From NCBI GenBank assembly GCA_947630455.1, contig CANRHP010000004.1, positions 20,414-84,413 on the forward strand: a DNA stretch of 64,000 bases, written 5' to 3'. The notes under the pieces are model-generated. The model was given only the letters and a program-made list of their open reading frames with translations, was not told the origin of the DNA and did not search any database. This stretch comes from an uncultured Clostridia bacterium. GTDB lineage: Bacteria; Bacillota; Clostridia; Christensenellales; CAG-314. This document shows, piece after piece, positions 24,756-63,400 of the stretch (positions are counted from its first letter, which is position 1; each line of letters opens with the position of its first letter). A program made the position numbers and the translations under genes.

Positions 24756-26300
24756 ATGAAAAAGCTTGTTTATATTTTATTAGCTGTTTTGCTTTGTATG
24801 AATTTTGTTCTCTCCGCTTGCGGCGAAAAAGGCGGCGGCAACAACAGCAACAAAAATGATCACGAATACGATATATATTACACCGTGACCTTTGACAGTC
24901 AAGGAGGAAGCGCGGTTGACAGTCAGCGAGTACTCGCGGGAAATCCCGCCACAGTGCCTACTTCTCCTACTAAAAGCAATTGTGAATTTAACGGTTGGTA
25001 TCGCTCGTCAAGCGACGCTGTGCAATGGAACTTTGCCACCGACCGCGTTAACGAAAATATCACGCTTTACGCCCATTGGACGGAGAAACAGGATACGCTT
25101 GTGCCAAGTGAGATGCTTACGTTCGAAAAGAGCGTTGAAGGATTTATCGTCACGGGCGACAGTGGGCAGTTGGCAAGTATTGTCATTCCCGCCGAACATG
25201 ACGGCGTGCCCGTCGTCGGAATTGCCGACAGCGCGTTTGCCTACTCAAAGCACATGTCGGAGATTCTCTCCGTGACCATTCCCGACAGCGTGACGGAAAT
25301 CGGCAAAAACGCTTTCCACAATCAGTCCGCGCTCGTTTCGGTGGATATCGGTACAAACAGCAAACTTGAAAAGATCGGGAACAACGCATTTTCGGGCAAC
25401 AGCGCACTCAAATCCATCTATTTGCCTGCAGGATTGAACTCCCTCGGTGATGACGTTTTCAACAACTGCGGCGGTTTGAAAACAATCACGGTTGCGGCGG
25501 AAAACACCCGTTATTCGGGAGAGGGGAATTGCCTCATAGATAACTCAACGCATACTCTTATTCGCGGCAGCAATACGAGTGTCATTCCCGAAACGGTTAC
25601 AAAGATAGGTGTGGCGGCGTTTCGCAGAGCAACGCTTACGGTGCTCACGATTCCGACATCTGTTACTTCCATTGAAAAATATGCCATTTCCGACAGCGCG
25701 ATCACAAAGATAAATTACAATGGCACTTCTGCGGAATGGGAAACCCTCATGGCAGCGTCGTCAAAATATTGGGATATGGGCAAGGAAACGGTTGAAGTTG
25801 TTTTCTCGGACACGACAAGAACAAGTCATATTCTTGTGGCGTACTTTTCCTGCACCGGCAACACGGAAAAAATAGCGGGCTATATTGCGGAATTTACCGG
25901 CGGTACGCTTTATCAGATCACACCTGCCGAACCTTATACGAACGCCGATCTGAATTATAACGACAGCAGCAGTCGTACGACAAAAGAGCAAAACGACGAT
26001 TCGGCTCGTCCTGCAATCAGCGGCAACGTCAAAAATATGGCGGATTATGAAGTTATCTTTCTCGGTTATCCAATATGGTGGGAAGAAGCACCGAAGATCA
26101 TCTATACTTTTCTCGAAAGTTACGATTTTTCCGGCAAGACGATAATCCCGTTCTGCACCTCGGCAAGCAGTCCTATGGGCAGTAGCGCAAATAATTTGCA
26201 CAGCCTAACAAGCGGCGCAATTTGGCAAAGCGGTATGCACTTTTCCGGCAATTCAACGCAAGGCAATGTACAGTCCTGGCTAAACGGCTTGGAGTACTAA
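24756..26300 (+). CDS. Exported lipoprotein: InlB B-repeat, BspA-type leucine-rich repeats and a C-terminal flavodoxin domain
   Basis: Lipobox FVLSAC-GEKGG. B-repeat (F.GWYRS...ITLYAHW). LRR_5-like repeats (IP.SVT.IG..AF). The C-terminal 150 aa are almost identical to the 23200 protein. Confidence 0.8.
   Translation: MKKLVYILLAVLLCMNFVLSACGEKGGGNNSNKNDHEYDIYYTVTFDSQGGSAVDSQRVLAGNPATVPTSPTKSNCEFNGWYRSSSDAVQWNFATDRVNENITLYAHWTEKQDTLVPSEMLTFEKSVEGFIVTGDSGQLASIVIPAEHDGVPVVGIADSAFAYSKHMSEILSVTIPDSVTEIGKNAFHNQSALVSVDIGTNSKLEKIGNNAFSGNSALKSIYLPAGLNSLGDDVFNNCGGLKTITVAAENTRYSGEGNCLIDNSTHTLIRGSNTSVIPETVTKIGVAAFRRATLTVLTIPTSVTSIEKYAISDSAITKINYNGTSAEWETLMAASSKYWDMGKETVEVVFSDTTRTSHILVAYFSCTGNTEKIAGYIAEFTGGTLYQITPAEPYTNADLNYNDSSSRTTKEQNDDSARPAISGNVKNMADYEVIFLGYPIWWEEAPKIIYTFLESYDFSGKTIIPFCTSASSPMGSSANNLHSLTSGAIWQSGMHFSGNSTQGNVQSWLNGLEY
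25833..26163 (+). repeat. Copy 2 of the 331-bp near-identical direct repeat
   Basis: See copy 1. The two mismatches are T/C transitions (GCGTAT/GCGTAC and GATAATT/GATAATC). Confidence 0.9.
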
Positions 26301-32007: not shown

Positions 32008-33135
32008 ATGTCAAACGTAAATAGATTGTTTTCTGTTCGCAAAATCTACGATCCCGACAAATCTGACGCATTGTTTGTAAAAGCAATGCGTGACAACTGT
32101 CGATATCAGTATAAACACTGTCGCGAATATTGCGAAATACTGGATAGAGAAGGCTTTTCACCCGACGACATCAAAACGTCGATTGACCTTGCACGATTAC
32201 CCTTTTTGCCAACGCTCTATCTCAAACGTCACCGATTGACGTCAATGTCTGCACGGCGCTTGATATTGAAGGTGACGAGCAGTGGCACAAGCGGGGCAAA
32301 GTCCTTTGTGGGCTTCAATATGCGCAGTATGCGAAACGCCTTCAAAATGGTGTGCCGCGTCGCGCGCTATCACAAGCTTTGGTCGGCGAGGCTGACTCGC
32401 TACGTGATCTTCGGTTACCGTCCATGTCGTGACAACAGTCTCGGCGCGTCCAAATCTGCCTGGGGCTTTACTTTTTTTGCGCCTGCCGCTTCCCGTGTGT
32501 ATGCTTTGGAGCGCAAACAAGGAGGATACAAGCTTGATCTTGCTAATATCAAATCAAAGCTCGTAAAATATTCCAAAGGACATCTTCCCGTGCGCACGAT
32601 GGGGTTTCCCGCCTATACCTTCTTTTTGCTGCGGCAGATGAAGGAAGAGGGTATATCTGTAAGATTACCTAAAGGCTCTTTGGTGTGTCTCGGCGGCGGA
32701 TGGAAACAATTTTATGCGGAAAAAGTCAGTAAGGAGGAGTTCTACAAGCTCTGTTACGAGGTTTTAGGTGTGGATGATAAACATGTCGTGGAGTTTTTCG
32801 GTGCAGTGGAACATCCGATTCTTTATACCGATTGCCGCTTTCACCATTTTCACGTACCGGCTTACAGTCGGGTCATAATACGCGATGTAGACACACTTAA
32901 GCCGCTTCCCTACGGTGAGGCGGGCTTGGTCAATTTACTCACTCCTGTCTTTGACAGCGGACCAATGCTTAGCATCCTGACGGATGATATCGGCGTGCTG
33001 CACAATGAGGGCTGTCCTTGCGGAGCATCCGCGCCCCACTTGGAAATATTGGGCAGAACGGGCGTCAAGGATATAGTTACATGTGCACAGGGTGCCGAAA
33101 GCCTGCTTAAAGACATGTTAAAGGAGGATTTATGA
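32008..33135 (+). CDS. LuxE-family acyl-protein synthetase / acyl-adenylating enzyme
   Basis: 375 aa. TSSGTSG AMP-binding-type loop. The overall pattern fits the LuxE family, and the adjacent gene is LuxC-like. Confidence 0.65.
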   Translation: MSNVNRLFSVRKIYDPDKSDALFVKAMRDNCRYQYKHCREYCEILDREGFSPDDIKTSIDLARLPFLPTLYLKRHRLTSMSARRLILKVTSSGTSGAKSFVGFNMRSMRNAFKMVCRVARYHKLWSARLTRYVIFGYRPCRDNSLGASKSAWGFTFFAPAASRVYALERKQGGYKLDLANIKSKLVKYSKGHLPVRTMGFPAYTFFLLRQMKEEGISVRLPKGSLVCLGGGWKQFYAEKVSKEEFYKLCYEVLGVDDKHVVEFFGAVEHPILYTDCRFHHFHVPAYSRVIIRDVDTLKPLPYGEAGLVNLLTPVFDSGPMLSILTDDIGVLHNEGCPCGASAPHLEILGRTGVKDIVTCAQGAESLLKDMLKEDL

Positions 33136-34391
33136 TACTATATAAAGGCAAAATTTATCCCGACAGCATGCAAAATGAACTTATCGACCGATTGGAAGGA
33201 GATATTGCCGCAACATTGTCCAATCAGTCCCCTATCACAGCGGAAACGGTTATTGCTGCGGGTGATAAGCTGTACCGCAAAGCGGCAGAAGGTCGCTATG
33301 ATAACATCGCATTGCCGTTGTTAAAGGATTTCGGCATAGAGTATGATCGTTATCAGACAATGGCGAAGGCTTTTTCTGCGGAGATGCTGCGTTACAAGTG
33401 TGAGATAGAGTTGGGCAAGGATTGGCGTGAGTTGCCTCCGCTGTATTGCGGTACAACGCGCAGAATTGTCCCGCTTGGCGTGCTTTTTCATATTGCGGCA
33501 GGCAACGTGGACGGTTTGCCCGCTTTCAGCGTCGCCGAAGGTTTGCTTGCGGGCAATATCAATGTGCTCAAATTGCCGTCGGGTGATAGCGGTATGTCCG
33601 TTAAATTACTTTCCGATCTCATCGCGGAAGAACCCTCGCTTGCCGACTACATCTATGTGTTCGATGTACCATCTACCGAGCTTGCAACGCTCAAACGTCT
33701 TGCGCACTTGGCGGACGGAGTTGTGGTGTGGGGAGGAGACATAGCCCAACGTGCTGCACGTGATATGTGCGATATCAACACCAAAATAATTCCTTGGGGT
33801 CACAAGCTGTCCTTTGCTTATGCGACAATAAGCGCATCGGATGAGCAGCTTCGCGCCCTCGCCTGCCATATTTGCTCAACGGAACAATTGCTGTGCTCTT
33901 CATGTCAGGGCATTTATCTTGATACCGACAGCTCGGAAGAGCTAAAAAAATTTGCTCGCCGCTTTTTCGACATTTTTCGCGAGGAAAACAACCGTCTCGG
34001 CAAAGCGAATATCGCTATGCGCGGACGCAACGCGGTAGAGCTGTACACAAAAATACTGGAAGGAGCAGGCGATGATGTGTTGACGGCAGACGGAGTTTCT
34101 GTGGAAGTGTGCAAGGGTACAGAGCTTCAGCTATCCAAAACACACAGAAATGTTTGGATAAAGGCATTGCCACGTGACTGCGTAGTTAAGACGCTCAAGC
34201 CCAACAAAGGATATCTGCAAACGTGCGGTTTACTTTGCCTTGCCGAGGATAAGCAAACGCTTGCGGATATGCTCATACGTGCAGGCGTAGTGCGCATAAC
34301 GGGCGGTGATATGAGTCGAACGGCGTTTGGAGAAGCGCATGACGGCGTCTATCCTTTGCGCGAATATACGCGTATAGCTGAGATAGATTAG
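33132..34391 (+). CDS. LuxC-family acyl-CoA (acyl-protein) reductase
   Basis: 419 aa. ALDH-superfamily-like segments (HIAAGNVDGLP..S...GLLAGNINVLKLPS). Translationally coupled to the LuxE-like gene (ATGA overlap). Confidence 0.65.
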   Translation: MILYKGKIYPDSMQNELIDRLEGDIAATLSNQSPITAETVIAAGDKLYRKAAEGRYDNIALPLLKDFGIEYDRYQTMAKAFSAEMLRYKCEIELGKDWRELPPLYCGTTRRIVPLGVLFHIAAGNVDGLPAFSVAEGLLAGNINVLKLPSGDSGMSVKLLSDLIAEEPSLADYIYVFDVPSTELATLKRLAHLADGVVVWGGDIAQRAARDMCDINTKIIPWGHKLSFAYATISASDEQLRALACHICSTEQLLCSSCQGIYLDTDSSEELKKFARRFFDIFREENNRLGKANIAMRGRNAVELYTKILEGAGDDVLTADGVSVEVCKGTELQLSKTHRNVWIKALPRDCVVKTLKPNKGYLQTCGLLCLAEDKQTLADMLIRAGVVRITGGDMSRTAFGEAHDGVYPLREYTRIAEID

Positions 34392-34447
34392 TAAAATTTT
34401 AGGATGTCATAAATCAATCCTATATTGTCAAATTTTTTTGCAAAATA

Positions 34448-34476
34448 TTGCGTAAACAAACTTATTGTGATATACT
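34448..34476 (+). promoter_or_regulatory. Sigma-A type promoter (TTGCGT-17 bp-TATACT, TG-extended)
   Basis: TTGCGT 34448-34453, TATACT 34471-34476. Confidence 0.5.
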
Positions 34477-34515
34477 TATTTCATTGTAATTTATTTTTGG
34501 GAGGACAATCAATCT

Positions 34516-35208
34516 ATGCAATATTCACACGAAGTAGAATTGATGCAATGCGTTGCAAAGGGTTGCAATCACGGTCCCGCACCCATTCCCGAAGAAGGAA
34601 AATGGGTCGCTGCTACGCAAATCAAGGATATCAACGGCTTGACGCACGGCTGCGGCTGCTGTGCACCTCAACAGGGAACATGCAAGCTTACGCTAAATGT
34701 TAAAGACGGAGTCATTCAGGAAGCGCTCGTTGAAACTATCGGCTGCTCCGGTATGACTCACTCGGCGGCTATGGCGGCGGAAATTTTGCCCGGCAAGACC
34801 ATACTCGAAGCTTTGAACACCGACCTAGTGTGCGATGCAATCAACGTTGCTATGCGCGAACTGTTTTTGCAAATCGTTTACGGACGCACTCAATCGGCAT
34901 TTTCCGATGACGGTTTGCCTATCGGTGCAGGACTTGAGGACCTCGGTAAAGGTTTGAGAAGTCAGGTGGGTACGATGTATTCCACTGCCAAGAAGGGTCC
35001 TCGCTATCTGGAAATGGCAGAGGGTTATGTTACACATCTCGCACTGGATGAGGGCAATGAAATTATCGGTTACGAATACGTCAATCTCGGCGTATTGATG
35101 AAAAACATATCCGAAGGTATGGACGCCAATGAGGCGCTCAACAAGGCAAAGAAACACTACGGACGTTACGAAAACGCCGCTAAATACATAGTACCGCGCA
35201 ATGAGTAA
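34516..35208 (+). CDS. NifU/IscU-like Cys-rich protein (partner of the GGGtGRT protein)
   Basis: 230 aa. Cys motifs CVAKGC, HGCGCCAPQQGTC and ETIGCSG, and the IscU-like LPGKTILEAL segment. Confidence 0.65.
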   Translation: MQYSHEVELMQCVAKGCNHGPAPIPEEGKWVAATQIKDINGLTHGCGCCAPQQGTCKLTLNVKDGVIQEALVETIGCSGMTHSAAMAAEILPGKTILEALNTDLVCDAINVAMRELFLQIVYGRTQSAFSDDGLPIGAGLEDLGKGLRSQVGTMYSTAKKGPRYLEMAEGYVTHLALDEGNEIIGYEYVNLGVLMKNISEGMDANEALNKAKKHYGRYENAAKYIVPRNE

Positions 35209-35221
35209 GGAGGAGCAAACA

Positions 35222-36220
35222 ATGGCTGTCACATTTGAAGGTTATGAAAGAAGAATAGACAAAATCAACTCCGAACTCAAAAAGTACGGACTCGAAAACC
35301 TCGAAGAAGCGCGTGAGCTGTGTCTCAGCCACGGCGTAAACGTAGAAGAAATAGTCAAGGGCGTGCAGCCGATTGCATTCGAAAATGCAGTTTGGGCGTA
35401 CACTCTCGGTTGTGCAATCGCTTTCAAAAAGGGCGTAAAGAACGCCGCTGAGGTAAGCGAGTGCATCGGCTTGGGACTTCAGGCATTCTGTATTCCGGGC
35501 AGCGTGGCAGATCAACGCCAAGTCGGTTTGGGACACGGCAATTTGGGTGCAATGCTGTTGAGAGAAGAAACGGACTGCTTTGCATTTCTTGCTGGGCACG
35601 AATCCTTTGCGGCCGCCGAGGGCGCGATCGGTATTGCCCGCAATGCCAACAAGGCACGCAAAAAACCTCTGCGCGTTATACTTAACGGTCTCGGCAAGGA
35701 CGCCGCATACATCATTTCACGTATAAACGGCTTTACCTATGTTCAAACAAAGTATGACTACTACACGGGCGAGCTCAACATCGTACGTGAGGTGGCATTT
35801 TCCGACGGCGAGCGCGCGAAGGTGCGTTGCTACGGCGCAGATGATGTCAATGAGGGCGTTGCCATAATGCGTTTCGAAAAGGTTGATGTGTCCATTACGG
35901 GCAACTCCACAAATCCCACGCGTTTCCAACATCCCGTTGCGGGAACCTACAAAAAGTGGTGTCAGGAAAACGGCAAAAAATATTTCTCTGTTGCAAGCGG
36001 CGGCGGCACAGGGCGTACGCTTCACCCGGACAATGTAGCGGCAGGTCCGGCGTCCTACGGTATGACGGACACACTGGGACGTATGCATAGTGACGCTCAA
36101 TTTGCGGGCAGCAGCTCTGTTCCGGCGCACGTTGAGATGATGGGACTTATAGGCATGGGCAACAACCCGATGGTTGGTGCGACCGTGGCTTGTTCCGTTG
36201 CCGTTGCCTTGGCTTTGTAG
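35222..36220 (+). CDS. GGGtGRT-motif protein (conserved, function unknown)
   Basis: Contains the literal SGGGTGRTLHP motif. Start at ATG 35222, 8 nt after AGGAGG; the track start at 35201 overlaps the upstream stop. Confidence 0.8.
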   Translation: MAVTFEGYERRIDKINSELKKYGLENLEEARELCLSHGVNVEEIVKGVQPIAFENAVWAYTLGCAIAFKKGVKNAAEVSECIGLGLQAFCIPGSVADQRQVGLGHGNLGAMLLREETDCFAFLAGHESFAAAEGAIGIARNANKARKKPLRVILNGLGKDAAYIISRINGFTYVQTKYDYYTGELNIVREVAFSDGERAKVRCYGADDVNEGVAIMRFEKVDVSITGNSTNPTRFQHPVAGTYKKWCQENGKKYFSVASGGGTGRTLHPDNVAAGPASYGMTDTLGRMHSDAQFAGSSSVPAHVEMMGLIGMGNNPMVGATVACSVAVALAL

Positions 36221-36790: not shown

Positions 36791-39451
36791 ATGAAATCAC
36801 ACAAAAGAAAAAATATTTTATTACTATTGTTGATATTGGCGCTTTGTGTTTGTGTATGTACATTAGTTGCATGTCACAATTCCAACGGCACTACACCCGA
36901 AAAACCCAATCCGCCTACAAAGGATCCTACCGGTACTACCCAACAGCACACGCATAATTATATACTGAGCTCAACGATCCCTGCTACCTGTACGGAAAAG
37001 GGCAGTAATATATACGTATGCGCTTGTGGGAGCGGCTATACCGACCCGATCCCCGCATTGGGACATGATTTGATTTATGTATCGTCGGATGACGGTGAAA
37101 CACACTGCAAGATGTGTCGTCGCTGCGACTACAAAACAGAAAAGGAAGCGCACAGCTACGACAATATTGTCGATGTAAGGCATGCCACATGTACGGAGGA
37201 AGGCTTGCAGACTGCAACGTGTGAGTGCGGTGCGTCGGTTTCGCAGATTTTATCTAAGCTCGATCACAAATTTAATGTTTACAAATACGATGACGGTGAG
37301 CATTGGAGGGTATGTGAAATGTGTCTGATGCCGCAGCCGAACAGTCGCGTCAGCCACAGCTTTGATACACAAAAGAGCTTCAATGCGGCTACTTGTACCG
37401 AGCAGGGCAGCATGGTGATGCAATGCCGTTGCGGCGCAACCGAAGAAACTATACTTCCCGTTGTACCTCACGATTTTCAATACAATCACAACGATACGGA
37501 GCATTGGAAACAGTGCAGCTCATGCACGCTTGAGCAGAAAGGAAGTCGGGCAGCGCACAATATGCAACTGTCCTCGCAAAGTGCAACATGTGTCAAAGAC
37601 GGGGTAACGGTCACATTCTGCGATTGTGGTTTGTCTCAAACTGAAACAACGCCGGCATTGGGGCACAATACGGACAAATCGGTTTTTGCTTATCGCAATG
37701 ATGAGGGGCATTTTTACAGCTGCAAGCGCTGCGGCGAAACGGTAAAGGAACAGCATACTCTTGAGGACGCTGACTGTCCCGACGGGCGCAACAAAGCGCC
37801 TGCATGCAGTGTTCAAGGGCATCAGGACAAGAAGTGTTCTGTATGCGGCTATACTTTTCACACAACAATACCTGCCGCAGGACACAAATATAAATACGAC
37901 GAAACAACTCGCAAGGAACCCACATGCACGCAAAAGGGCAGTGTGGAAAAGGTGTGCTCCGTTTGCGGAGACAGACAAACAGAAACAATCCCAACCATCG
38001 ATCATATTTGGGCAAAAGCTTGGCAGTCGGACGACAGCAGCCATTGGCACACATGCACCGTATGCGGAGCAAAACAAAGTGCAGCAGGGCACAGCTACGT
38101 AACGCAGGACAGCAAGGCTGCCACCTGTCTGACAGAGGGCTATACAAAAGAAAAATGCTCTGAATGTGAACACATCCGAACAACCGTTCTGCCAAAGGGA
38201 GAGCACAACTATCAGCTCGATCCCGTTGATTACCGCGATGCAACATGCACGGAACAGGGATATCATTGGTACGAATGTTCCGTTTGCCACGACAGAAAAA
38301 AAGAGTATGAAGATCTGTTGCCCCACAATATTGTCTCAGTTTCCGCCAAGGCGGCGACAGAAACCGAAAAGGGCTGGGTGGAGCATTTTGCCTGCACATT
38401 TTGCGGGAAAAAATTCAAGACACAAACAGATCAGTTTCCTCTCACGGACGAAGATGTTTATCTCCCTGCCCTAACGCCTATGGAGCTGAGAAGTATCGCC
38501 GAATTAAAAAATGTCGCGAAGGATTTTCTCGATGTTCCCAGCATAGAGAAATATCAGATTTCTGCGTCGGTATTTATGATACAGGACAACGCTATTTGGC
38601 TAACTGATGACAGTGATGACATTATTTTTACCGTTAATGATACCAAATACGCGTTAAATACAATTAACGAAGGCGATATCGTCACTCTTAAAGGATGTTT
38701 GCTTGGTACAAGCGACGGCGCAGATCTGGTGGATTTGGAAATAGTGTCCGTAGACGACGGCAAGCCTAACACGGTAACCGTAACGGCAGATATGACCTTT
38801 GAAGCCCAGCCCGACAAATTTTATGCTCATTCGAGTTCCGCTTATTATACGTTTGTAAATTACATTTCGGTCACTCAAAGCTGCTATTACGATCAACCTA
38901 TTTTGGGTGAAACGCTGCACTTCGAGTATGTTGACTACAGCGGTGTACTTATCGGCAGCTTTGTTATCAACGGTAAATCCTACACAATGCATAACGGTTC
39001 GTTGGACTACGAGGTCAAAGGCGATGTAAATATCCAAGTGACATTTGCAGAGTATCCTCTCAACATTGTATCGGTTGAGGAAATTGTTACAACACCAAGC
39101 GGAGTGGATGTGGAGGTTGATCCCTACATAACTTATCGCTACGACGGCAATGCCAATACGTACGGACGGTTGTATGCAAACTCTCATTTGCGCTTTACTG
39201 TCACAAATGCATATATAACGCGCATAGAAATAGAATTTGAGGAATTTAATCAAAACGACAAACTGAAAAACAATCTCATTTATTTGGGCAGTGATCTAAA
39301 TCATAAAGCACAAGTTGCGTACAAGCTTGATGGACTCAAAGTGGTGTTGAATTTCGACGTCGCTAAAAAGTACGCGTTTTTTGAGTACAGCGCGGTTGCA
39401 CAGGCGCGTATAAAAACTCTTATTATACAGTACGAAACATATAATACATAA
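36791..39451 (+). CDS. Lipoprotein with a tandem Cys/His-rich module array and a C-terminal beta-rich region
   Basis: Lipobox CTLVAC-HNS. About 9 modules of ATCTE.G....C.CG.......P..GH alternate with about 5 modules of DD..HW..C..C.......H (aa 53-545). The C-terminal 340 aa lack Cys. Confidence 0.8.
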   Translation: MKSHKRKNILLLLLILALCVCVCTLVACHNSNGTTPEKPNPPTKDPTGTTQQHTHNYILSSTIPATCTEKGSNIYVCACGSGYTDPIPALGHDLIYVSSDDGETHCKMCRRCDYKTEKEAHSYDNIVDVRHATCTEEGLQTATCECGASVSQILSKLDHKFNVYKYDDGEHWRVCEMCLMPQPNSRVSHSFDTQKSFNAATCTEQGSMVMQCRCGATEETILPVVPHDFQYNHNDTEHWKQCSSCTLEQKGSRAAHNMQLSSQSATCVKDGVTVTFCDCGLSQTETTPALGHNTDKSVFAYRNDEGHFYSCKRCGETVKEQHTLEDADCPDGRNKAPACSVQGHQDKKCSVCGYTFHTTIPAAGHKYKYDETTRKEPTCTQKGSVEKVCSVCGDRQTETIPTIDHIWAKAWQSDDSSHWHTCTVCGAKQSAAGHSYVTQDSKAATCLTEGYTKEKCSECEHIRTTVLPKGEHNYQLDPVDYRDATCTEQGYHWYECSVCHDRKKEYEDLLPHNIVSVSAKAATETEKGWVEHFACTFCGKKFKTQTDQFPLTDEDVYLPALTPMELRSIAELKNVAKDFLDVPSIEKYQISASVFMIQDNAIWLTDDSDDIIFTVNDTKYALNTINEGDIVTLKGCLLGTSDGADLVDLEIVSVDDGKPNTVTVTADMTFEAQPDKFYAHSSSAYYTFVNYISVTQSCYYDQPILGETLHFEYVDYSGVLIGSFVINGKSYTMHNGSLDYEVKGDVNIQVTFAEYPLNIVSVEEIVTTPSGVDVEVDPYITYRYDGNANTYGRLYANSHLRFTVTNAYITRIEIEFEEFNQNDKLKNNLIYLGSDLNHKAQVAYKLDGLKVVLNFDVAKKYAFFEYSAVAQARIKTLIIQYETYNT
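36947..38425 (+). repeat. Coding tandem array of Cys/His modules (protein-level repeat; DNA copies are diverged)
   Basis: Periodic recurrence of the motifs above when reading the translation. Confidence 0.75.
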
Positions 39452-41237: not shown

Positions 41238-41266
41238 TTGACACAAAATGCGCGGTGCTGTATAAT
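41238..41266 (+). promoter_or_regulatory. Perfect-consensus sigma-A promoter (TTGACA-17 bp-TATAAT) about 400 nt upstream of the next CDS
   Basis: TTGACA 41238-41243, TATAAT 41261-41266. Confidence 0.65.
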
Positions 41267-55154: not shown

Positions 55155-56945
55155 ATGAAAATAACGTCACAATTATTGAGAGAAAAATTTTTGGAATTTT
55201 TCAGTGAACGCGGACATGCCGTCATAAAATCGGCAAGTCTCATTCCCGAAAACGATCCAAGCGTATTGTTTACGACAGCGGGTATGCATCCGCTCATTCC
55301 CTATCTGTTAGGGCAAAAGCACCCTGCCGGACGTCGTCTTACCGATGTCCAGAAGTGCGTTCGGACGGGCGACATAGAGGAGGTTGGCGATGACAGCCAT
55401 TTAACCTTCTTCGAGATGTTAGGCAACTGGTCTTTAGGCGATTACTTCAATCACGAATCCATCGCCTGGAGCTATGAATTTTTGACGGACAAAAAATATC
55501 TCGGCTTGGATCCCAACCGTATATCGGTCACGGTGTTTGCCGGTGATGATGATGCACCTCGCGACGAAGATTCGGCAAGAGTTTGGGAGGAGTGCGGTAT
55601 CCCGAAGGAGAGAATATTCTATCTGCCCAAAAAGAACAATTGGTGGATTGCCGGCACAACGGGACCATGCGGACCGGATACGGAAATTTTTTGGGATACG
55701 GGCAAGCCCGCCTGTTCCGATCACTGCGATCCAAGCTGTGACTGCGGCAAATATCTGGAGATATGGAACAACGTGTTTATGCAGTTCAATCGTCAGGCAG
55801 ATGGTTCTTATTTGCCGCTCGCACAAAAAAATGTAGATACCGGTATGGGGCTCGAGCGCACCGTATGCGTGCTTAACGGTCTCAGATCCGTCTATGACAT
55901 TGACCTTTTCCAAGGTGCTCTTGCAAAGATTGAAGAGCTAAGCGGCAAAAACTACGGCAGTGACGTCAAAACAACCAAGGCAATGCGCATAATTGCAGAT
56001 CATGTGCGTACGGCGACGTTTTTACTGGGCGATCCTGTTGGCGTTGTGCCGAGCAATGTGGATCAAGGCTATGTGTTGAGACGTCTCATACGCCGTGCCG
56101 TTCGTATGGCAAACACTCTCGATATGCCCAAGGGCAGTATATCGCAGATCGCGCGCGTTTACATAGATGTTTACCGTGATGTGTACGCCGAGCTGGTTGC
56201 CAATGCCGATAAAATTATTGACGAGCTGGACAAGGAAGAAGATCGTTTTGTCAAAACGCTTGTTGCCGGTGAAAAGGAATTTTTCAAGGTTATATCTCAC
56301 ATATCCGGCAGCGTTGTTCCCGGAGGAACGGCGTTCAAGCTTTATGACACGTTCGGTTTTCCTGTGGAGATGACTGTGGAGCTTGCCGCGGAGAATGGGT
56401 ATACCGTGGATGTGGAGGGCTTCAAACAAAAGTATGCCGAGCACCAGGCCAAATCGCATGCCGGCAGCGAACAACGCTTCAAGGGAGGTATGGCGGAAGG
56501 TGGAGGCATAGAAACCACCTATCTGCACACGGCAACGCACTTGTTGCAGGCGGCATTGCGCAGGGTACTCGGAGACGAAGTCAAGCAAAAGGGCAGCAAC
56601 ATAACTCCCGAGCGTTTGCGTTTCGATTTCAGCTTTTCGCGTCCGATGACGGCGGAGGAAATCGCCGAAACAGAGCGCCTTGTCAATGAGGCAATAGAGC
56701 GCCGTTTACCCGTCACTTGTGAGGAAATGCCGATAGAGGACGCGCGCAAAACGGGCGCTATCGGTTTGTTCGGCGACAGATACGGCGAGGTTGTCAAGGT
56801 TTACACAATGGGTGATTTCAGCAAAGAAATATGCGGCGGACCTCACGCCGAAAACACGGGTGATTTGGGACGTTTTGTTATCACAAAGGAACAATCCTCT
56901 TCCGCAGGCGTAAGGCGTATCAAAGCCGAATTGCACAGAGATTGA
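55155..56945 (+). CDS. alaS: Alanine--tRNA ligase, short form (catalytic, tRNA-recognition and editing domains; no C-Ala domain)
   Basis: N-terminal FL.FF..RGH......SL.P.NDPS.LFT.AGM and FFEMLGNWS.GDYF. Editing-site motifs HTATH and CGGPH near the C-terminus. Only 596 aa. Confidence 0.8.
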   Translation: MKITSQLLREKFLEFFSERGHAVIKSASLIPENDPSVLFTTAGMHPLIPYLLGQKHPAGRRLTDVQKCVRTGDIEEVGDDSHLTFFEMLGNWSLGDYFNHESIAWSYEFLTDKKYLGLDPNRISVTVFAGDDDAPRDEDSARVWEECGIPKERIFYLPKKNNWWIAGTTGPCGPDTEIFWDTGKPACSDHCDPSCDCGKYLEIWNNVFMQFNRQADGSYLPLAQKNVDTGMGLERTVCVLNGLRSVYDIDLFQGALAKIEELSGKNYGSDVKTTKAMRIIADHVRTATFLLGDPVGVVPSNVDQGYVLRRLIRRAVRMANTLDMPKGSISQIARVYIDVYRDVYAELVANADKIIDELDKEEDRFVKTLVAGEKEFFKVISHISGSVVPGGTAFKLYDTFGFPVEMTVELAAENGYTVDVEGFKQKYAEHQAKSHAGSEQRFKGGMAEGGGIETTYLHTATHLLQAALRRVLGDEVKQKGSNITPERLRFDFSFSRPMTAEEIAETERLVNEAIERRLPVTCEEMPIEDARKTGAIGLFGDRYGEVVKVYTMGDFSKEICGGPHAENTGDLGRFVITKEQSSSAGVRRIKAELHRD

Positions 56946-57011: not shown

Positions 57012-59069
57012 TTATTTTACACCAAACAACATTTGTCCGTATGTGGGCAGCGACCAAAGCTCTGCCGGTGTCAAAGCCTCCAGCATATCTGCCGATCTGC
57101 GCAGCGATTCAAGCGCGGGTGCCAAGGTGTCGCGGCAGTAGCGTGCCTGATCATCCAATTCACCCGAGGAAGAAAGCTCGTTCAGCAATTTTTTCAGTCT
57201 GAGCATGCGAATTTCCAGCCTCTGCAGCAGCTTGGTTATCCTCTCTGCCGAGCTTTGTTCCGTCTGACAGCTTGCTTCAAGCGCGCCTTTGTTTTGCGCT
57301 GTTTGAGCGAGCATACCGACGTACTTTTCCGCGCTGTACGATATATGCTTGCGGCACATTTCCAAGGCAACTGTTGCTTCAACTCGCACTGTGTTTATGT
57401 AATTTTCCAACATTATCTTTTGTCTTGCGGCAACTTCCCTCAGGTTAAGTACGTTGTGGCGCGAAAGCAGGTTTACATTGTGCGCATTGGTAAGAGCCAA
57501 AGACGAATCGACACAGTCGGAGCCCTTCAATCCGCGCAGCTTTGCTTCTGCAGCCCACTCGTCAGAGTAGTTGTTGCCGCTGAAAATAACGCGTTTATGT
57601 GCTAAAAATGTTTCCGTCACCAATTCTCCCGCGCTTTTCATCACATTCGGCGCATGAGCGAGTCTGTCGGCAAACTGTCTGAGACTTTCCGCAACGGCGG
57701 TGTTCAGCGCCGTATTTACATCGGCTATCGAAGTCGATGCTCCAACCGAACGAAATTCGAATTTGTTTCCGCAAAAGGCAAACGGTGAGGTACGATTTCT
57801 ATCTGTATTTTTGCCGATATTGGGCAAAATATCTATACCGAAACGCCATTTTCCGTTTGTTGCAATGCTTACGGCACGCTCCAACGACTGTCCCAAAAAT
57901 ACTGTCAGTACTCGTGGCGGCGCTTCATAGCCGCCCAAACGGCAATCGTTGCCGTGCGACGAAACGGCGGCAAGCAGCAATTCGTGATAGTCGTCCACGG
58001 CTTTGACGATCGCAGCCAAAAAAAGCAAAAATCGCGCGTTTTGTAACGGAGTTGTACCTGGCTCCAAAAGATTTTCGTCTCCGTCCGTCAACAACGACCA
58101 ATTGTTGTGTTTTCCGCTGCCGTTTACAAAGGAAAAGGGCTTTTCGTGCAGCAAGCAGGCAAAACCGTGCCTATCCGCAGTTTGTTTCAGCACCTCCATG
58201 GTAATTTGGTTGCTGTCTGCGGCAAGGTTGACGCGCGTGTAACAGGGCGCCAGCTCGTGTTGGTGCGGCGCAACCTCGTTGTGCTCGGTTCTTACAAGTA
58301 TTCCGAGCTTCCACAGCTCTCTGTCCACATCCTGCATAAAGTCGAGCACTCTGTCGTTTATCGGACAAAAGTAATGGTCGTCAAATTCCTGTCCCTTGGG
58401 AGCCGCCGCTCCAAACAAGGTACGCCCGGCGTACACAAGATCGGGTCGCTTGTCAAACAGCGATTTGTCTATGAGAAAGTACTCCTGTTCGGCGCCAACC
58501 ACTGCGTAAACGTGGTTTATCCCTTCTCCCAAGGCGTTCAGCACGCGTACTGCCTGTTTGTCCAACGCCTTGCAGCTTCTGAGCAGCGGAGTTTTTTTGT
58601 CCAAAACCTCGCCGCTTGCTCCGCAAAAGGTAGACGGAACATACAGACAGCCATCCTTAACAAAAGGATAACTTGTCACATCCCACTGCGTCAGTCCCCT
58701 TGCTTCGTAAATGCAGCGCATGCCTCCGCTGGGAAAGCTGCTTGCGTCCCCTTCCCCCTTGGACAGCTCCTTGCCGCGAAACTTCAACAGTGCGTTGTAG
58801 CTGCGGTTCAGACAAAACAGGCTGTCCCTTTTGCCTGCGGTACAATTGTTCAGCGGGCTGAACCAGTGAGTGTAGCGTGTTGCGCCCTTTCGGATTGCCC
58901 AGCGGCACAAAGCTTTTGCATATACATCTCGTGCTTTGGGCGGCACTTCGGAAAAATTATCGCGGGCATTTACTATCAAATTGTATGTAGCTTTAGGCAG
59001 ATATTTCTTCATTTTTACTTCGTCGAAAACGCAATCTGCAAAGGCGTCTTTATTGTGTGTGTATTTCAT
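57012..59069 (-). CDS. glnN: Glutamine synthetase type III
   Basis: 685 aa. N-terminal region with THWFSPL resembles the Bacteroides GlnN THWFQPL segment. Size and layout fit GSIII. Confidence 0.85.
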   Translation of the reverse strand: MKYTHNKDAFADCVFDEVKMKKYLPKATYNLIVNARDNFSEVPPKARDVYAKALCRWAIRKGATRYTHWFSPLNNCTAGKRDSLFCLNRSYNALLKFRGKELSKGEGDASSFPSGGMRCIYEARGLTQWDVTSYPFVKDGCLYVPSTFCGASGEVLDKKTPLLRSCKALDKQAVRVLNALGEGINHVYAVVGAEQEYFLIDKSLFDKRPDLVYAGRTLFGAAAPKGQEFDDHYFCPINDRVLDFMQDVDRELWKLGILVRTEHNEVAPHQHELAPCYTRVNLAADSNQITMEVLKQTADRHGFACLLHEKPFSFVNGSGKHNNWSLLTDGDENLLEPGTTPLQNARFLLFLAAIVKAVDDYHELLLAAVSSHGNDCRLGGYEAPPRVLTVFLGQSLERAVSIATNGKWRFGIDILPNIGKNTDRNRTSPFAFCGNKFEFRSVGASTSIADVNTALNTAVAESLRQFADRLAHAPNVMKSAGELVTETFLAHKRVIFSGNNYSDEWAAEAKLRGLKGSDCVDSSLALTNAHNVNLLSRHNVLNLREVAARQKIMLENYINTVRVEATVALEMCRKHISYSAEKYVGMLAQTAQNKGALEASCQTEQSSAERITKLLQRLEIRMLRLKKLLNELSSSGELDDQARYCRDTLAPALESLRRSADMLEALTPAELWSLPTYGQMLFGVK

Positions 59070-59085
59070 AACTTTTTCCTTATTT

Positions 59086-59114
59086 ACAATATGATTTTAT
59101 GCAAAGATTTGCAA
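59086..59114 (-). promoter_or_regulatory. Candidate GSIII promoter (TTGCAA-17 bp-TATTGT, minus strand) overlapped by a 14-bp palindrome
   Basis: Minus-strand TTGCAA at 59109-59114, TATTGT at 59086-59091. TGCAAA-GA-TTTGCA palindrome at 59100-59113. Confidence 0.4.
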
Positions 59115-59144
59115 CAAACTTGTTTTTTTTGCCGCGTCAATTGC

Positions 59145-59173
59145 TTGACAATCTTCCGCGCTGTTTGTATAAT
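59145..59173 (+). promoter_or_regulatory. Perfect-consensus sigma-A promoter of rplM-rpsI (TTGACA-17 bp-TATAAT)
   Basis: TTGACA 59145-59150, TATAAT 59168-59173. Confidence 0.7.
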
Positions 59174-59179
59174 AGAAAG

Positions 59180-59291
59180 GCTGTGAGTAATTCGGCGAAG
59201 TATTTTAAGCTCTGCTTCGTCTAAACCGCATTTCCACTGGCGGTAATTGCTCAACCGTGAACAGCGACAATCTTAAATCAGGAGTAAAACT
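59180..59291 (+). promoter_or_regulatory. rplM 5' leader, candidate ribosomal protein L13 leader
   Basis: About 110-nt untranslated leader between the promoter and rplM. An L13 autoregulatory leader is known at this position in Firmicutes. I did not verify the motif itself. Confidence 0.35.
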
Positions 59292-59726
59292 ATGATAAAA
59301 ACTTACATGGCCAAAAAAGAGGCCGTTGAAAGAAAATGGTACGTCGTAGACGCTGCGGACAAACCGCTCGGGCGTGTGGCAAGCCAAGTTGCAGCTATAC
59401 TGCGCGGCAAAAACAAACCCACCTTCACGCCCAATGTGGATTGCGGCGATCACGTCATTGTCATCAACTGCGACAAGGTAGTGTTGACGGGCGACAAGCT
59501 CACAAAGAAAATGTATGTTCGCCGTTCTCCCAGACCGGGTCATCTCAAAAGGACCCAATACGCCAAGCTCATGGCGGAGAGAAGTGATTTTGCTATGATG
59601 CACGCCGTCAAGGGTATGCTTCCTCACAACAGTCTCGGCAGAAAGATGCTCACAAAGCTCCGCGTCTACAAGGGAGCAGAACACAAGCACGAAGCACAAC
59701 ATCCCGAAGTGCTGGTGCTCGAGTAA
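59292..59726 (+). CDS. rplM: 50S ribosomal protein L13
   Basis: 144 aa. WYVVDA..K.LGR.AS..A..LRGK.KP.FTP is highly conserved. Confidence 0.97.
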
Positions 59727-59740
59727 GGAGGAAATGACAA

Positions 59741-60151
59741 ATGGCTAAGGTAAAATCAACCAAAAAGGTACAATTTTGGGGAACAGGAAGAAGAAAGAAA
59801 TCTATCGCTCGCGTTCGTCTTATTCCCGGCGGAAACGGAACAATAACCATCAATCAGCGTGACATCGACCAATATTTCGGTCTCGACACACTCAAGTACA
59901 TTGTTCGTCAACCTCTCAACGCCACCGAGACTCTCGGCAAGTACGATGTTGTAGTCAACGTAAGCGGCGGTGGTTACACCGGACAGGCAGGCGCTATTCG
60001 CCACGGTATTTCCCGCGCGTTGGTAGTTGCAGGCGAAGACAAGGCGATCCTCAAAAAGAACGGCTTCCTTACCCGTGATCCTCGTATGAAGGAACGTAAG
60101 AAGTACGGTTTGAAAAAGGCGCGCAAGGCTCCGCAATTCAGCAAGCGCTAA
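59741..60151 (+). CDS. rpsI: 30S ribosomal protein S9
   Basis: 136 aa. GTGRRK.S.ARV and the C-terminal GGG..GQAGA.RHGI.RAL...RD.R..ERKK.G..KARK.PQFSKR. Confidence 0.97.
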
Positions 60152-60225
60152 TCGCCCATTGTACGTCAGTTGTCATCGGCTGTATCAAGCCGGGCAACAT
60201 TTACAACCAAATATTTTCCATCAAG

Positions 60226-60259
60226 ATCCGATCTTTGTTCAAAAGGTCGGATTTTTTTT
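60226..60259 (+). terminator. Rho-independent terminator of rplM-rpsI
   Basis: 11-bp stem ATCCGATCTTT/AAAGGTCGGAT followed by T8. Confidence 0.85.
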
Positions 60260-60293
60260 ACTTCACACTTCAGTCTGTTGTTTTCTCTGTAAT

Positions 60294-60306
60294 CCCCCCC
60301 CCACCC
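60294..60306. repeat. Homopolymer tract C9-A-C3
   Basis: Read directly. It is inverted relative to the G11 tract at 60414-60424. Confidence 0.95.
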
Positions 60307-60341
60307 AATATTTAGGTAATTTTTGACCCTACAAAGCGTCT

Positions 60342-60375
60342 AAAAGTTTGAAAATGAAAAAATTTTCAAATTTTT
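60342..60375. repeat. 34-bp AT-rich near-palindrome (14-bp arms, 1 mismatch; perfect core TTTGAAAAT-N6-ATTTTCAAA)
   Basis: Read directly. Lies 25-58 bp upstream of the -35 box. Confidence 0.85.
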
Positions 60376-60399
60376 TAATTTTAATGTTGTTTTAATTTA

Positions 60400-60430
60400 T
60401 TGACAAATGCGCTGGGGGGGGGGGTATCAT
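60400..60430 (+). promoter_or_regulatory. Promoter with G11 tract in the spacer (TTGACA-19 bp-TATCAT); candidate phase-variable promoter
   Basis: TTGACA 60400-60405, G11 60414-60424, TATCAT 60425-60430. Confidence 0.55.
60414..60424. repeat. Homopolymer tract G11
   Basis: Read directly. Confidence 0.95.
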
Positions 60431-60488
60431 TGGTATTACATACAAATGTGAAAACTATGTATAACTAAATAGAAAGGAGGAAATCACA

Positions 60489-63400
60489 ATGACGCACAAA
60501 TTACACGGAAAAACATTGCTCATAGCCGTTTTTGCGGTTGTGCTGGTGCTTGCGCTCGGCGCGGCGGTGTTTTTCAGCGTATATTTAGCAAGTAACTCGG
60601 CAAAAGCCGAAGAGCAGCTTGTGCTCGACGGCAACACGGCGGACTATTCGATTTTAAACGACCATTCTAACGGCGTTAACAATTTTTGGACATATAGCCG
60701 TAGTAATAACGAATGGACCACCGGAGTCAAAAGAGCAGGTGCTTCAAACAACGGCGATGAGGCTAAGGCTTCTGTTTTGACGCTCAAGGTTACCAAGGAC
60801 GGTGACATTGCTTTTCAATGGAAGCTATCACTTGCATCTTCCAGTGCTGTTGCCGTGAGACATTATACCAATGTTCCCGAGGACGGCAGTCTTGAAACGG
60901 CTACTGTGGAATGGATCTACAACAAGGGCGAAGTAGATGAATTTAGTGCTAAAAAAAGATGTTTTGGTGATGAAGAACATTATCAAGGAAAGCTTGAAAC
61001 TGACACACAGAAGAATTACCAAAATATCACCGTTTCGGATTGCAAGGCAGGCGATTACGTAACCATTGCATATATGTGCAGCAGCAACGGCTCGTCAAAC
61101 ACTTATAATTTGAAGGTCAAGGGTCTTAAAGTTCCCGATACTCAATTTACAATTACTGCCAGGGTTGCAGATGGCCAATCGGAATTCGGCACAATCAAAA
61201 CGGAAAGAGAGGGTGAGGTATCTCAAGAGGGCGTTTTGGCAGCAAAGCGCGGCTATGATGAGTCTGTAACCTTCACGGCAGTACCCAGCGAGGGTTATGT
61301 TGCATATTGGACAAATGCCGATGGATCAAAAATCATAAGCTCCACGGAGGAATACTCCGTCAGCAATATTGCCGAAGGCAACGATGGAAGCGAGTTTACT
61401 GTAAACTTTGTTGAGTTGGCGGACAAGGAATCGTTGATAACCATGACCGAGCAGTCAGAGGATAACCCTTATTGGCAACTCACAGGTGAAGGCAAATACG
61501 AGCTGGTAGATATCAAGGAAACAGAGAAAGGCTCTGCAAACTACATTGATGAACAAACCTTGATGATAGAATTTGTCGGAGAAAAATATTTGTCCTTCGA
61601 TTACTCATTGATTAAAGAGAACAATTTATCAACCGGTTCTCTTCTCAGCTTGAGAATTCATGTGGACAACACTTACCCGGATGGCATCATAAATGGTTCA
61701 CTTAAGGCAACGGGTTCTCCCGATGCCGAGGGTTCGCCGCTTCGCGTTAATGTGCACATTGCAGGTGAAGGCTACCACAAAGTGCGCCTGACTGCATATT
61801 GCGGTGGTTCTTCTAACCAACACCTTTTTGGCAATGAAAAGCTTTCGGTAGAAAACATTACTCTTTCCGATGAGGCTCCAACGGAGAACATCGTGGTTGT
61901 TTACGATTCGCGCCTTGCCGAACTCTATTATAAAGACGAGCTCGTTCCTGCGCAGAACGAAGGTGAGGTCGTTGAGCAGCAGCTTACGGTACCTATTGGA
62001 ATCTCATACAAAATAAAGCTGGTTCCCAGAACAGACGTTATCTCTTCTATCGACAACGTCAGCACAACGTCCGCCAAGTTCCTTTCGGGCGAAGCAAACG
62101 TTGTTCCATTGATAGGGAGCGGTCCGTCTTTTTCGACCTCTTACGGAAGCGGAAATGTAGAAGTGGAATTGGGACACTATGTTGGCAAGAATTATGCTTT
62201 CGGTAGTTCGGAATATCCTTTGAATGAAGGCGAATCTCAGCTTAAGGTGACGTTTACGTTTATTGAGTATGCTCCGGCACCTATAGTAAAGGTTACCAAG
62301 CAAATGGATAGCGAAATCGAAGAAAATGTGCCGGTGGAAGATGGTCAAATTGTTGAATTCCCATTCCTTAAAACAAATTCGGCAACAGTCTTTGTTCAAA
62401 AGTCCGAAAAATTCAGTCTGGAAAACTATCAAATAAAGATAGACGGTGAATTGTACTCGGGCGTTGAAGACGGAACTATTGAGGGTTATTATGTGTTTGC
62501 TCTCAACGATGTAAGTATTCACTCCGTTGATGTGGCGTATGTCTCCGAGGAGTTCGATTGCTCCAAAGGAAAAATGAGCTTCACCGTCAAGGAGGTTGTT
62601 GAGGGCGGCACGTTGAGTGACATTGTTCACACCCCGGGGCTTAGCGTTACAAGCAAGGTCAACCAGAAGTATTCTACGGCAACGTATAAATGGGACTTTT
62701 CCGGACCGGATTCCGAGGAAAATAACTATGCCTATGGAATGACGGTTAAAGATAGATTTAGAGAAAACGGTTTTGCCGAAACTCAATATATTGCTGCAAA
62801 CCTCATTTTCTCCATGACCGATGAAGTGCAAGAGGAGCAGGGATGCATAACGTTTCAATTTAGACTTGCCGGCCACGATGCAACAGATGCGGGGGGTCGC
62901 CATTTAAGCGGAAAATTATATTACAGGATAGGCAAGGAATTTAGCGCAGACGATAGTAGTAAAAACAGCTTTTCCGATGCAACGCTTATTGCAAGGGCTA
63001 ATGATGCAAATGATGAAAGCTCACTCGAATTGGGCAATGGCGTGGTTGCAGGCTCCGATGGTTGGTATAAGGTCAGCATTGTGGTTCACAAAGGAGAAAA
63101 ACTGTACATCGGCTTTTTGGCTTACTATTCCGGTTCTCGTGCAGGCGACGCGGTTTATGGCGATAGCTCGGTTGCAATTCGTAATGTCGAGTTTATCACA
63201 GGTGAAAAGAACCTGAAGCTTGGTCTGTGTGATGAAACAACAGGCTCCGCAAAGGCAACAGTTGGAGAACAGTCTTACGATGTTGCTGCACAAGGTGAGG
63301 AACAAAGCTTTACAGCTTCGGCAGGTTCAATAATAAACCTGCAAGCCACCCTTGGCAGTGATGAGATCTTCTACGGTTGGACTGTAAACGGAATTCTTGT

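Follow-up and report, generated by a model that had tools for sequence, protein, structure and literature searches.

The question addressed here is whether a run of eleven guanines (G11), situated in the -35/-10 spacer of what appears to be the promoter of a giant surface-protein gene, acts as a genetic switch. The run lies near the end of a 64,000-nucleotide (nt) stretch of DNA from an uncultured Clostridia bacterium (GenBank assembly GCA_947630455.1, contig CANRHP010000004.1), termed the window in the following, and is preceded by an inverted partner that begins with nine cytosines (C9). The original prediction for this locus had been a phase switch that operates either by slipped-strand replication or by inversion of the DNA between the two homopolymers. 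Our analysis favours the former, that is, G11 is read as a slipped-strand contingency tract in the spacer of a sigma-A-type promoter that would drive a giant adhesin-like operon; we regard the chances for and against this reading as evenly balanced.

Two exceptional homopolymers and one strong promoter candidate

Long runs of G or C are hardly to be expected in this DNA, which has a G+C content of 47%. G11 and C9 are the sole G or C runs of more than six nt in the 64-kb window, the next longest being a run of six G and a run of five C, and the dinucleotide frequencies of the window predict 0.005 G runs of at least 11 nt and 0.012 C runs of at least 9 nt per window. In 797,790 bases from 80 rpsI loci of related Clostridia, five G or C runs of seven nt were found and none of eight or more. 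The two homopolymers are far beyond chance, and the probability that these two runs, with no others of such length in the window, came to lie 107 base pairs (bp) apart in inverted orientation by accident is negligible. Being uninterrupted and longer than about 8 nt, G11 belongs to the homopolymers that are considered to be slippable.

The giant gene needs a promoter of its own, because a strong intrinsic terminator (Table 1) isolates it from the upstream genes rplM (59292-59726) and rpsI (59741-60151). TTGACA-19-TATCAT, which matches the consensus at 11 of 12 positions, is the only strong sigma-A-type candidate between this terminator and the ATG of the giant gene; the runner-up in the same interval, TTGACC-21-GAAAAT, scores 9/12. 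The promoter call predicts a transcription start at about 60437, and TATCAT is located 58 nt from the ATG. The presence of an in-frame TAA at 60462-60464, between G11 and the ATG, places the tract upstream of the coding region and excludes a coding position. Direct reading confirmed the predicted coordinates of both hexamers, the G tract, the Shine-Dalgarno (SD) motif, the ATG and the C tract, which has the form C9-A-C3.

The length of the spacer sets this promoter apart from most other strong candidates. A survey of the window revealed spacers of 17 bp in 10 of the 14 promoter-like sites scoring at least 11/12 and in 16 of the 46 sites scoring at least 10/12, and thus the earlier claim that 17 bp is the usual spacing was reproduced approximately, with the peak at 17 bp. 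The accompanying claim, that the excess length is purely homopolymeric, holds, in that a tract of G9 would yield a spacer of exactly 17 bp and a tract of G10 one of 18 bp. A motif, AATGCGC, that is common to this region and to a promoter at 41238 is a coincidence, since the two regions are otherwise unrelated.

The very AT-rich segment between the two tracts (60307-60399) has no further copy in the window or in the fetched loci. It contains a palindrome of 34 bp, TTTGAAAAT-N6-ATTTTCAAA (60342-60375), which proved to be real as predicted, with arms of 14 nt each (60342-60355 and 60362-60375) that are 93% complementary and separated by a gap of 6 nt. The palindrome is a possible operator; the idea that this operator is shared with a second match at 7-30 of the window was rejected, because that match is situated in apparent coding sequence. 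A scan of 59000-61000 yielded no Rfam match and hence no known riboswitch or leader. The in silico DNA fold of 60280-60440 pairs the C run with the G run but is not significant (z = -1.87), and the predicted 5' untranslated region (60437-60520) is unstructured as RNA (z = +0.4).

Part of the locus is present in a second, independent assembly. A SPAdes contig from ENA sample ERZ27249389 (L081; 1602 bp, coverage 1.9), on which rplM and rpsI were matched by the Pfam families Ribosomal_L13 and Ribosomal_S9, is 99.94% identical to window positions 58816-60417, carries the identical C9-A-C3 in the same orientation and ends four G into the G tract. Since the C run and the first residues of the G run recur in it, the tracts are not an artefact of one assembly, and the possible refutation that the original prediction had named in this respect is not borne out. 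The exact count of eleven G is that of the window assembly alone. L081 was the only contig retrieved by an exact-protein look-up of RplM; the corresponding look-ups of RpsI, GS-III and alanyl-tRNA synthetase (AlaRS) returned no match, nor did exact-pattern scans of genome and metagenome contig collections for the sequences flanking the tracts. The species is essentially absent from the public collections scanned.

A family of giant-protein operons with poly-G tracts

The RpsI protein encoded in the window is 89-90% identical to those of two mouse-gut metagenome-assembled genomes (MAGs), which are labelled Christensenellaceae and Eubacteriales (L001 and L002); the value of 90% applies to the Christensenellaceae MAG, and the earlier assignment of the DNA to the Clostridia was right. 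In these two genomes, the closest by RpsI, a different secreted-protein gene follows rpsI, and it has no tract.

The giant protein has an N-terminal signal peptide, is longer than 1170 amino acids (aa) and runs off the window. No domain was detected in a Pfam scan of its first 1170 aa, and no relatives were present in the PDB. A word-indexed protein search with it likewise returned no relatives, and the profile version of this search was swamped by repeat-domain giants; the family was recovered by an exhaustive HMMER search. The homologues have lengths of 2367-3063 aa, can be aligned across the whole 1170-aa fragment at 32-42% identity (HMMER), and have MBG_2 repeats toward the C terminus as well as an InlB-type B repeat. 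The genes downstream of the giant gene are the same at all homologous loci, namely those for a protein of about 200 aa, an ATP-binding cassette (ABC) ATPase, a permease of about 580 aa with 12 transmembrane segments, and a Big_2 protein of about 1050 aa. Thus, the label of a giant surface protein that had been given to the gene product is fair: a signal peptide, homologues with MBG_2 and InlB-type B repeats, and a downstream ABC exporter-like module with a Big_2 protein are the marks of a surface or host-interaction determinant.

The upstream regions were read at six species-level homologous loci from other MAGs. A 5' regulatory tract of G9 to G12 is present in four of the six operons, and in a fifth its place is taken by a resolvase gene and a predicted invertible element (Table 1). 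Of the six G runs of at least 8 nt in the unique homologue sequence, which amounts to about 90 kb, four are located in upstream regions of at most 300 bp. The comparison of the locus with related genomes that had been proposed thus gave a divided answer, because G tracts do recur upstream of homologous operons, but there they lie outside the best promoter's spacer. G9 has been kept between L083 and L085 in spite of proteins that are only 39% identical and immediate tract flanks that differ, which implies selection to keep the tract.

The fifth locus, L082 (GCA_947625385.1, contig CANQOB010000008.1), contains a divergently oriented resolvase gene at 2091-2753 (PF00239, E = 8e-28), next to 26-nt inverted repeats at 2823-2848 and 2936-2961 that are 81% complementary and 87 bp apart. 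They enclose TTGACA-17-TATATT, oriented toward the giant gene P0002. This arrangement is predicted to be a textbook invertible promoter and points independently to phase variation of the operon. Taken together with the poly-G tracts, it makes the operon family look as though it has repeatedly been placed under stochastic switching, by poly-G or by an inverton.

Several further features were noticed at the homologous loci. In L087 (648-805; L086 1040-1197; L090 232-389) the tract of G12 or G10-T-G, 285 nt upstream of the giant gene, is part of a 42-aa leader ORF (open reading frame), MTKKADKVMNNVTAPSYTGGG[G/C]TCCGLWHKFSHRSTEYKHI, which has a strong SD motif and whose stop codon precedes a terminator hairpin by a few nt; this ORF may be a frameshift-dependent transcription attenuator. 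In L089 (12525-12545; L088 14503-14523) the sequence tttacG9tggtatctgATG places G9 over the last codons of the permease gene and the SD motif of the Big_2 gene of about 1035 aa, and this would be another candidate slippage site in the operon family. Clusters of GC-rich hairpin repeats that resemble repetitive extragenic palindromic (REP) elements are situated upstream of the operon in L083 (3270-3750), where the region had previously been called as a gene of 188 aa, and in L084 (430-700), where one copy has G9 (551-559) versus GGGGA in its sister copies. A 21-nt inverted repeat around the L083 tract is not kept in L085 and is probably due to chance.

Table 1. Features of the promoter region in the window and tracts at the homologous loci
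Locus	Feature	Position	Strand	Remark
Window	Intrinsic terminator of the rplM-rpsI operon	60223-60259	+	14-pair stem and T8; terminator scan
Window	C9-A-C3 tract	60294-60306	+	inverted partner of the G tract
Window	Very AT-rich upstream promoter region, UP-element-like	60307-60399		holds the palindrome
Window	Promoter-like TTGTCA-17-TAAAAT	60378-60406	-	10/12; inside the C/G-bounded segment, overlaps the forward -35
Window	-35 hexamer TTGACA	60400-60405	+	perfect consensus match
Window	Spacer, 19 bp: AATGCGCT (60406-60413), then G11 (60414-60424)	60406-60424	+	proposed slippage tract
Window	-10 hexamer TATCAT	60425-60430	+	5/6 consensus matches
Window	Shine-Dalgarno motif AAGGAGG	60474-60480	+	ends 8 nt 5' of the ATG
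Window	ATG of the giant gene	60489; frame open to window end at 64000	+	1170 codons
L083 (P0172)	G9	125 nt before ATG		C7 127 bp further upstream
L085, L091 (P0003 cluster)	G9	homologous to the position in L083		
L084 (P0001)	G9	89 nt before ATG		closest homologue
L086, L090, L087 (P0004 cluster)	G10-T-G or G12	285 nt before ATG		
L088, L089 (P0005)	No upstream tract			G9 overlapping the SD region of the downstream Big_2 gene
L082 (P0002)	No tract			divergent resolvase gene and 26-nt inverted repeats

Proposed slippage in the promoter spacer

According to the favoured reading, replication slippage would add G residues to the tract or remove them, and the spacing of the -35 and -10 hexamers would change with each event. 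A tract of G9 would provide the optimal spacing of 17 bp and turn the promoter on, G10 with 18 bp would reduce its activity, and the assembled G11 with 19 bp would represent a low or off state. The population would then be a mixture of cells that display the giant protein and cells that do not. The anatomy of the promoter can be read directly from the DNA; the slippage itself and the way in which spacer length would affect expression are what we infer from it.

Slippage is favoured by the purely homopolymeric excess of the spacer, the rarity of such runs, the recurrence of the tracts in an independent assembly, the retention of G9 between L083 and L085 and the precedents described below, and for the following reasons. 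First, the promoter that contains the tract is the sole strong candidate, with 11 of 12 matches, and a 17-bp spacer is the commonest among the strong promoters elsewhere in the window. Second, G tracts recur before homologous operons, and one of these operons, L082, carries an inverton. Third, L086 and L087 differ at only two positions in 13,533 nt, and one of these differences, T versus G, falls at the tract's 3' end. Fourth, a product with a signal peptide that belongs to an MBG-repeat surface-protein family is a typical target of such switches.

It should be noted that several observations weigh against this reading. The positions of the homologous tracts differ: in L083 and L085, G9 lies 23-24 bp upstream of the -35 hexamer of a conserved TTGATT-17-TAAAAT, in L084 it lies about 100 nt downstream of the -10 hexamer of TTGCAT-17-TAGAAT (or, alternatively, in the spacer of a weak CCGACA-17-GACAAT), and in L086 and L087 it lies inside the leader ORF. 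The window locus is the only one with the tract in the spacer of a strong promoter, and the spacer mechanism is therefore at best specific to it. In addition, slippage does not need the C9-A-C3 tract and leaves it unaccounted for. The end of L081 inside the G run is compatible with heterogeneity of tract length, but the 1.9-fold coverage of that contig explains it equally well.

No polymorphism of tract length was seen in three comparisons of homologues between samples. L085 and L091, which come from different samples and have 17-18-fold coverage, share a tract of G9, there is no difference between L088 and L089, and L086 and L090 have G10-T-G where L087 has G12, so that the total length is constant. 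The T/G difference could be a real hotspot, but it could also be an Illumina error following a homopolymer, at a coverage of 4-5-fold. G or C runs of at least 9 nt are intrinsically slippage-prone in all bacteria studied. Identical consensus lengths are a weak argument against slippage, because minority lengths can exist beneath a constant consensus, as in Treponema pallidum, in which minority lengths of 7-11 G surround a dominant G9 within isolates (PMC7864442). The original prediction of a slipped-strand switch has therefore fared well with respect to the sole credible promoter, the spacing that G9 would restore, the tracts of homologues and the inverton of L082, and less well with respect to tract length and to tract position in the homologues.

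The only difference between L085 and L091 concerns a 100-bp tandem repeat upstream of the promoter of the giant gene (L085 3400-3700, L091 3300-3700), which is present in three versus four copies; this may be real copy-number variation or a collapse during assembly.

Alternative explanations

The alternative that survives best, although we think it unlikely, is that the G run is a stable cis-element with a fixed, non-stochastic role, for example in a detuned weak promoter, as a binding or structural element or, where it is transcribed, as an RNA element. This would agree with the equal tract lengths in different samples (L085 and L091, L088 and L089) and with the retention of G9 in the diverged species represented by L083, L084 and L085. 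That the position of the tract relative to promoters varies from locus to locus would also fit a role other than the spacing of -35 and -10, and a CU-rich stretch just upstream of the G run in L084 and L087 could pair with it in RNA. However, runs of this length are prone to slippage, so that a constant consensus is no proof of stability, the absence of both an Rfam match and a significant fold does not favour a structural element, and the inverton of L082 argues for an on/off control of the operon.

A decidedly less probable explanation is that the C9-A-C3/G11 segment of about 131 bp is an invertible promoter flipped by a site-specific recombinase, the assembled orientation being off and the inverted one on. 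The two arms do form an inverted repeat, of 14 nt at 86% or of 9 nt without mismatch, with 105-113 bp between them; the geometry resembles that of the predicted L082 inverton, in which the repeats are adjacent to a resolvase gene, and it is hardly by chance that the two long G/C runs, the only ones in the window, are inverted with respect to each other. The forward -35 hexamer is inside the segment and the forward -10 hexamer outside, and an inversion of 60294-60424 would turn the internal minus-strand promoter-like sequence (Table 1) to face the giant gene. In the assembled orientation the latter points away from the giant gene to the rpsI terminator, where there is no gene for it to drive, and such a match could arise fortuitously in AT-rich DNA. 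Furthermore, the arms are homopolymeric and lack dyad symmetry, and in this they are unlike any characterized recombinase site that we know of. A Pfam scan of 47 ORFs of the window (about 150 aa or more, spanning 127-59069) detected no recombinase domain. In L084, L085 and L086 the G tract has no C partner, the C7 of L083 is situated in the loop of a GC-rich repeat, and the sole independent contig, L081, has the assembled orientation. The C run could possibly be a by-product of neutral origin, e.g., of quasi-palindrome template switching.

Slippage and inversion might also act together, in that C9-A-C3 and G11 might be the arms of an invertible cassette whose lengths are subject to slippage. 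Inversion would then exchange the promoter with the 19-bp spacer for the internal one with 17 bp, slippage would tune the spacing, and both together would set the expression of the operon. Poly-G would possibly be a regulatory device of the whole family that is used in a promoter spacer, upstream of a -35 hexamer, in a leader-ORF attenuator or in an SD region. We consider this dual mode very improbable.

A mobile element such as a miniature inverted-repeat transposable element was rejected, because the segment has a single copy in the window and the loci and its flanks have no target-site duplication. An artefact that arose during sequencing or assembly (poly-G from two-colour chemistry, for example, or an error in polishing) would be compatible with a count of eleven G from one assembly and a second contig that stops within the tract, but it is almost certainly not the explanation for the existence of the tracts in view of the identical C tract and G-tract start in that contig, the recurrence of homologous tracts in three or more independent samples, and the internal position of the tracts with unique sequence on each side.

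Relation to known phase-variable systems

Among Clostridia, and among gut commensals in general, nearly all known phase variation relies on recombinase-driven inversion, and slippage tracts in promoter spacers are textbook knowledge for Neisseria, Treponema, Bordetella and mycoplasmas. The closest parallels to the favoured reading are porA of Neisseria meningitidis (van der Ende 1995, cited in PMC5084427; PMC7864442) and tp0126 of T. pallidum (PMC7864442), for both of which a poly-G tract between -35 and -10 is described whose length determines expression, with an optimum at 17 nt. In common with both, the window has a G homopolymer of about 9-11 nt in the spacer of a predicted sigma-70-type promoter for a surface protein, and G9 would correspond to 17 bp. 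In contrast to both, the window comes from an uncultured gut Clostridia bacterium that is Christensenellales-like and of Gram-positive type, the gene heads a giant MBG-protein/ABC operon, and an inverted C9 is located upstream.

Tracts at a larger distance can act differently. For the poly-C tract of Bordetella fim, the T tract of Helicobacter pylori sabA and the poly-G tracts of T. pallidum tprE/G/J/L, tract length is reported to alter how upstream elements are phased (PMC4081817, PMC7864442). The homologues L083 and L085, but not the window locus, resemble such distal-tract "rheostat" promoters in having G9 upstream of the -35 hexamer.

With cwpV and flgB of Clostridioides difficile, the invertons of Bacteroides and fimS of Escherichia coli the window would share inverted repeats that bracket a candidate promoter-bearing segment of about 110 bp upstream of a surface-protein gene. 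Unlike in recombinase-driven invertons, the repeats are homopolymeric, only the forward -35 hexamer is inside, no recombinase was found in the scanned ORFs, and one orientation was observed. In Bifidobacterium breve, slippage of G runs in pilus clusters switches a surface colonization factor, according to PMC9187656. The likeness consists in a G run, here a candidate switch, on a surface factor of a gut commensal; however, the B. breve tract is intragenic and acts by frameshift, whereas that of the window is in the promoter.

The literature searched contained nothing that links the Christensenellales-like group with homopolymer switches. The mechanism is thus already known elsewhere, and it is the setting that is new, namely Christensenellales-like gut Clostridia and the operon of a giant MBG protein. 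Additional interest comes from the homologous operons, which appear to use poly-G at different positions, or an inverton. If confirmed, uncultured Christensenellales-like gut bacteria would switch a giant surface protein via homopolymer contingency loci, and one operon family would have gained poly-G or an inverton in different species, i.e., convergent routes to bet-hedging. The analysis also flags a locus at which metagenome assemblies break or misreport length, and it suggests that searches for invertons only, such as PhaseFinder, would overlook one kind of switch that gut Firmicutes have.

Other features of the window

Three further ORFs of the window encode putative surface proteins, one with Flg_new and GLUG domains (127-2082), one with Flg_new and BspA-type leucine-rich repeats fused to a flavodoxin domain (24756-26300) and one of 886 aa without a Pfam match (36791-39451); there is no homopolymer tract near any of the three. 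An unusual neighbourhood is found at 32008-36220, where a pair of genes for a LuxE-like acyl-protein synthetase and a LuxC-like acyl-CoA reductase is followed by an ORF of 230 aa without a Pfam match, and where a GGGtGRT-family protein (PF14057, E = 1e-196) is encoded as well. Lastly, the AlaRS ORF at 55155-56945, which ends just before a terminator, comprises 596 aa with the domains tRNA-synt_2c and tRNA_SAD; the usual bacterial AlaRS is longer than this.

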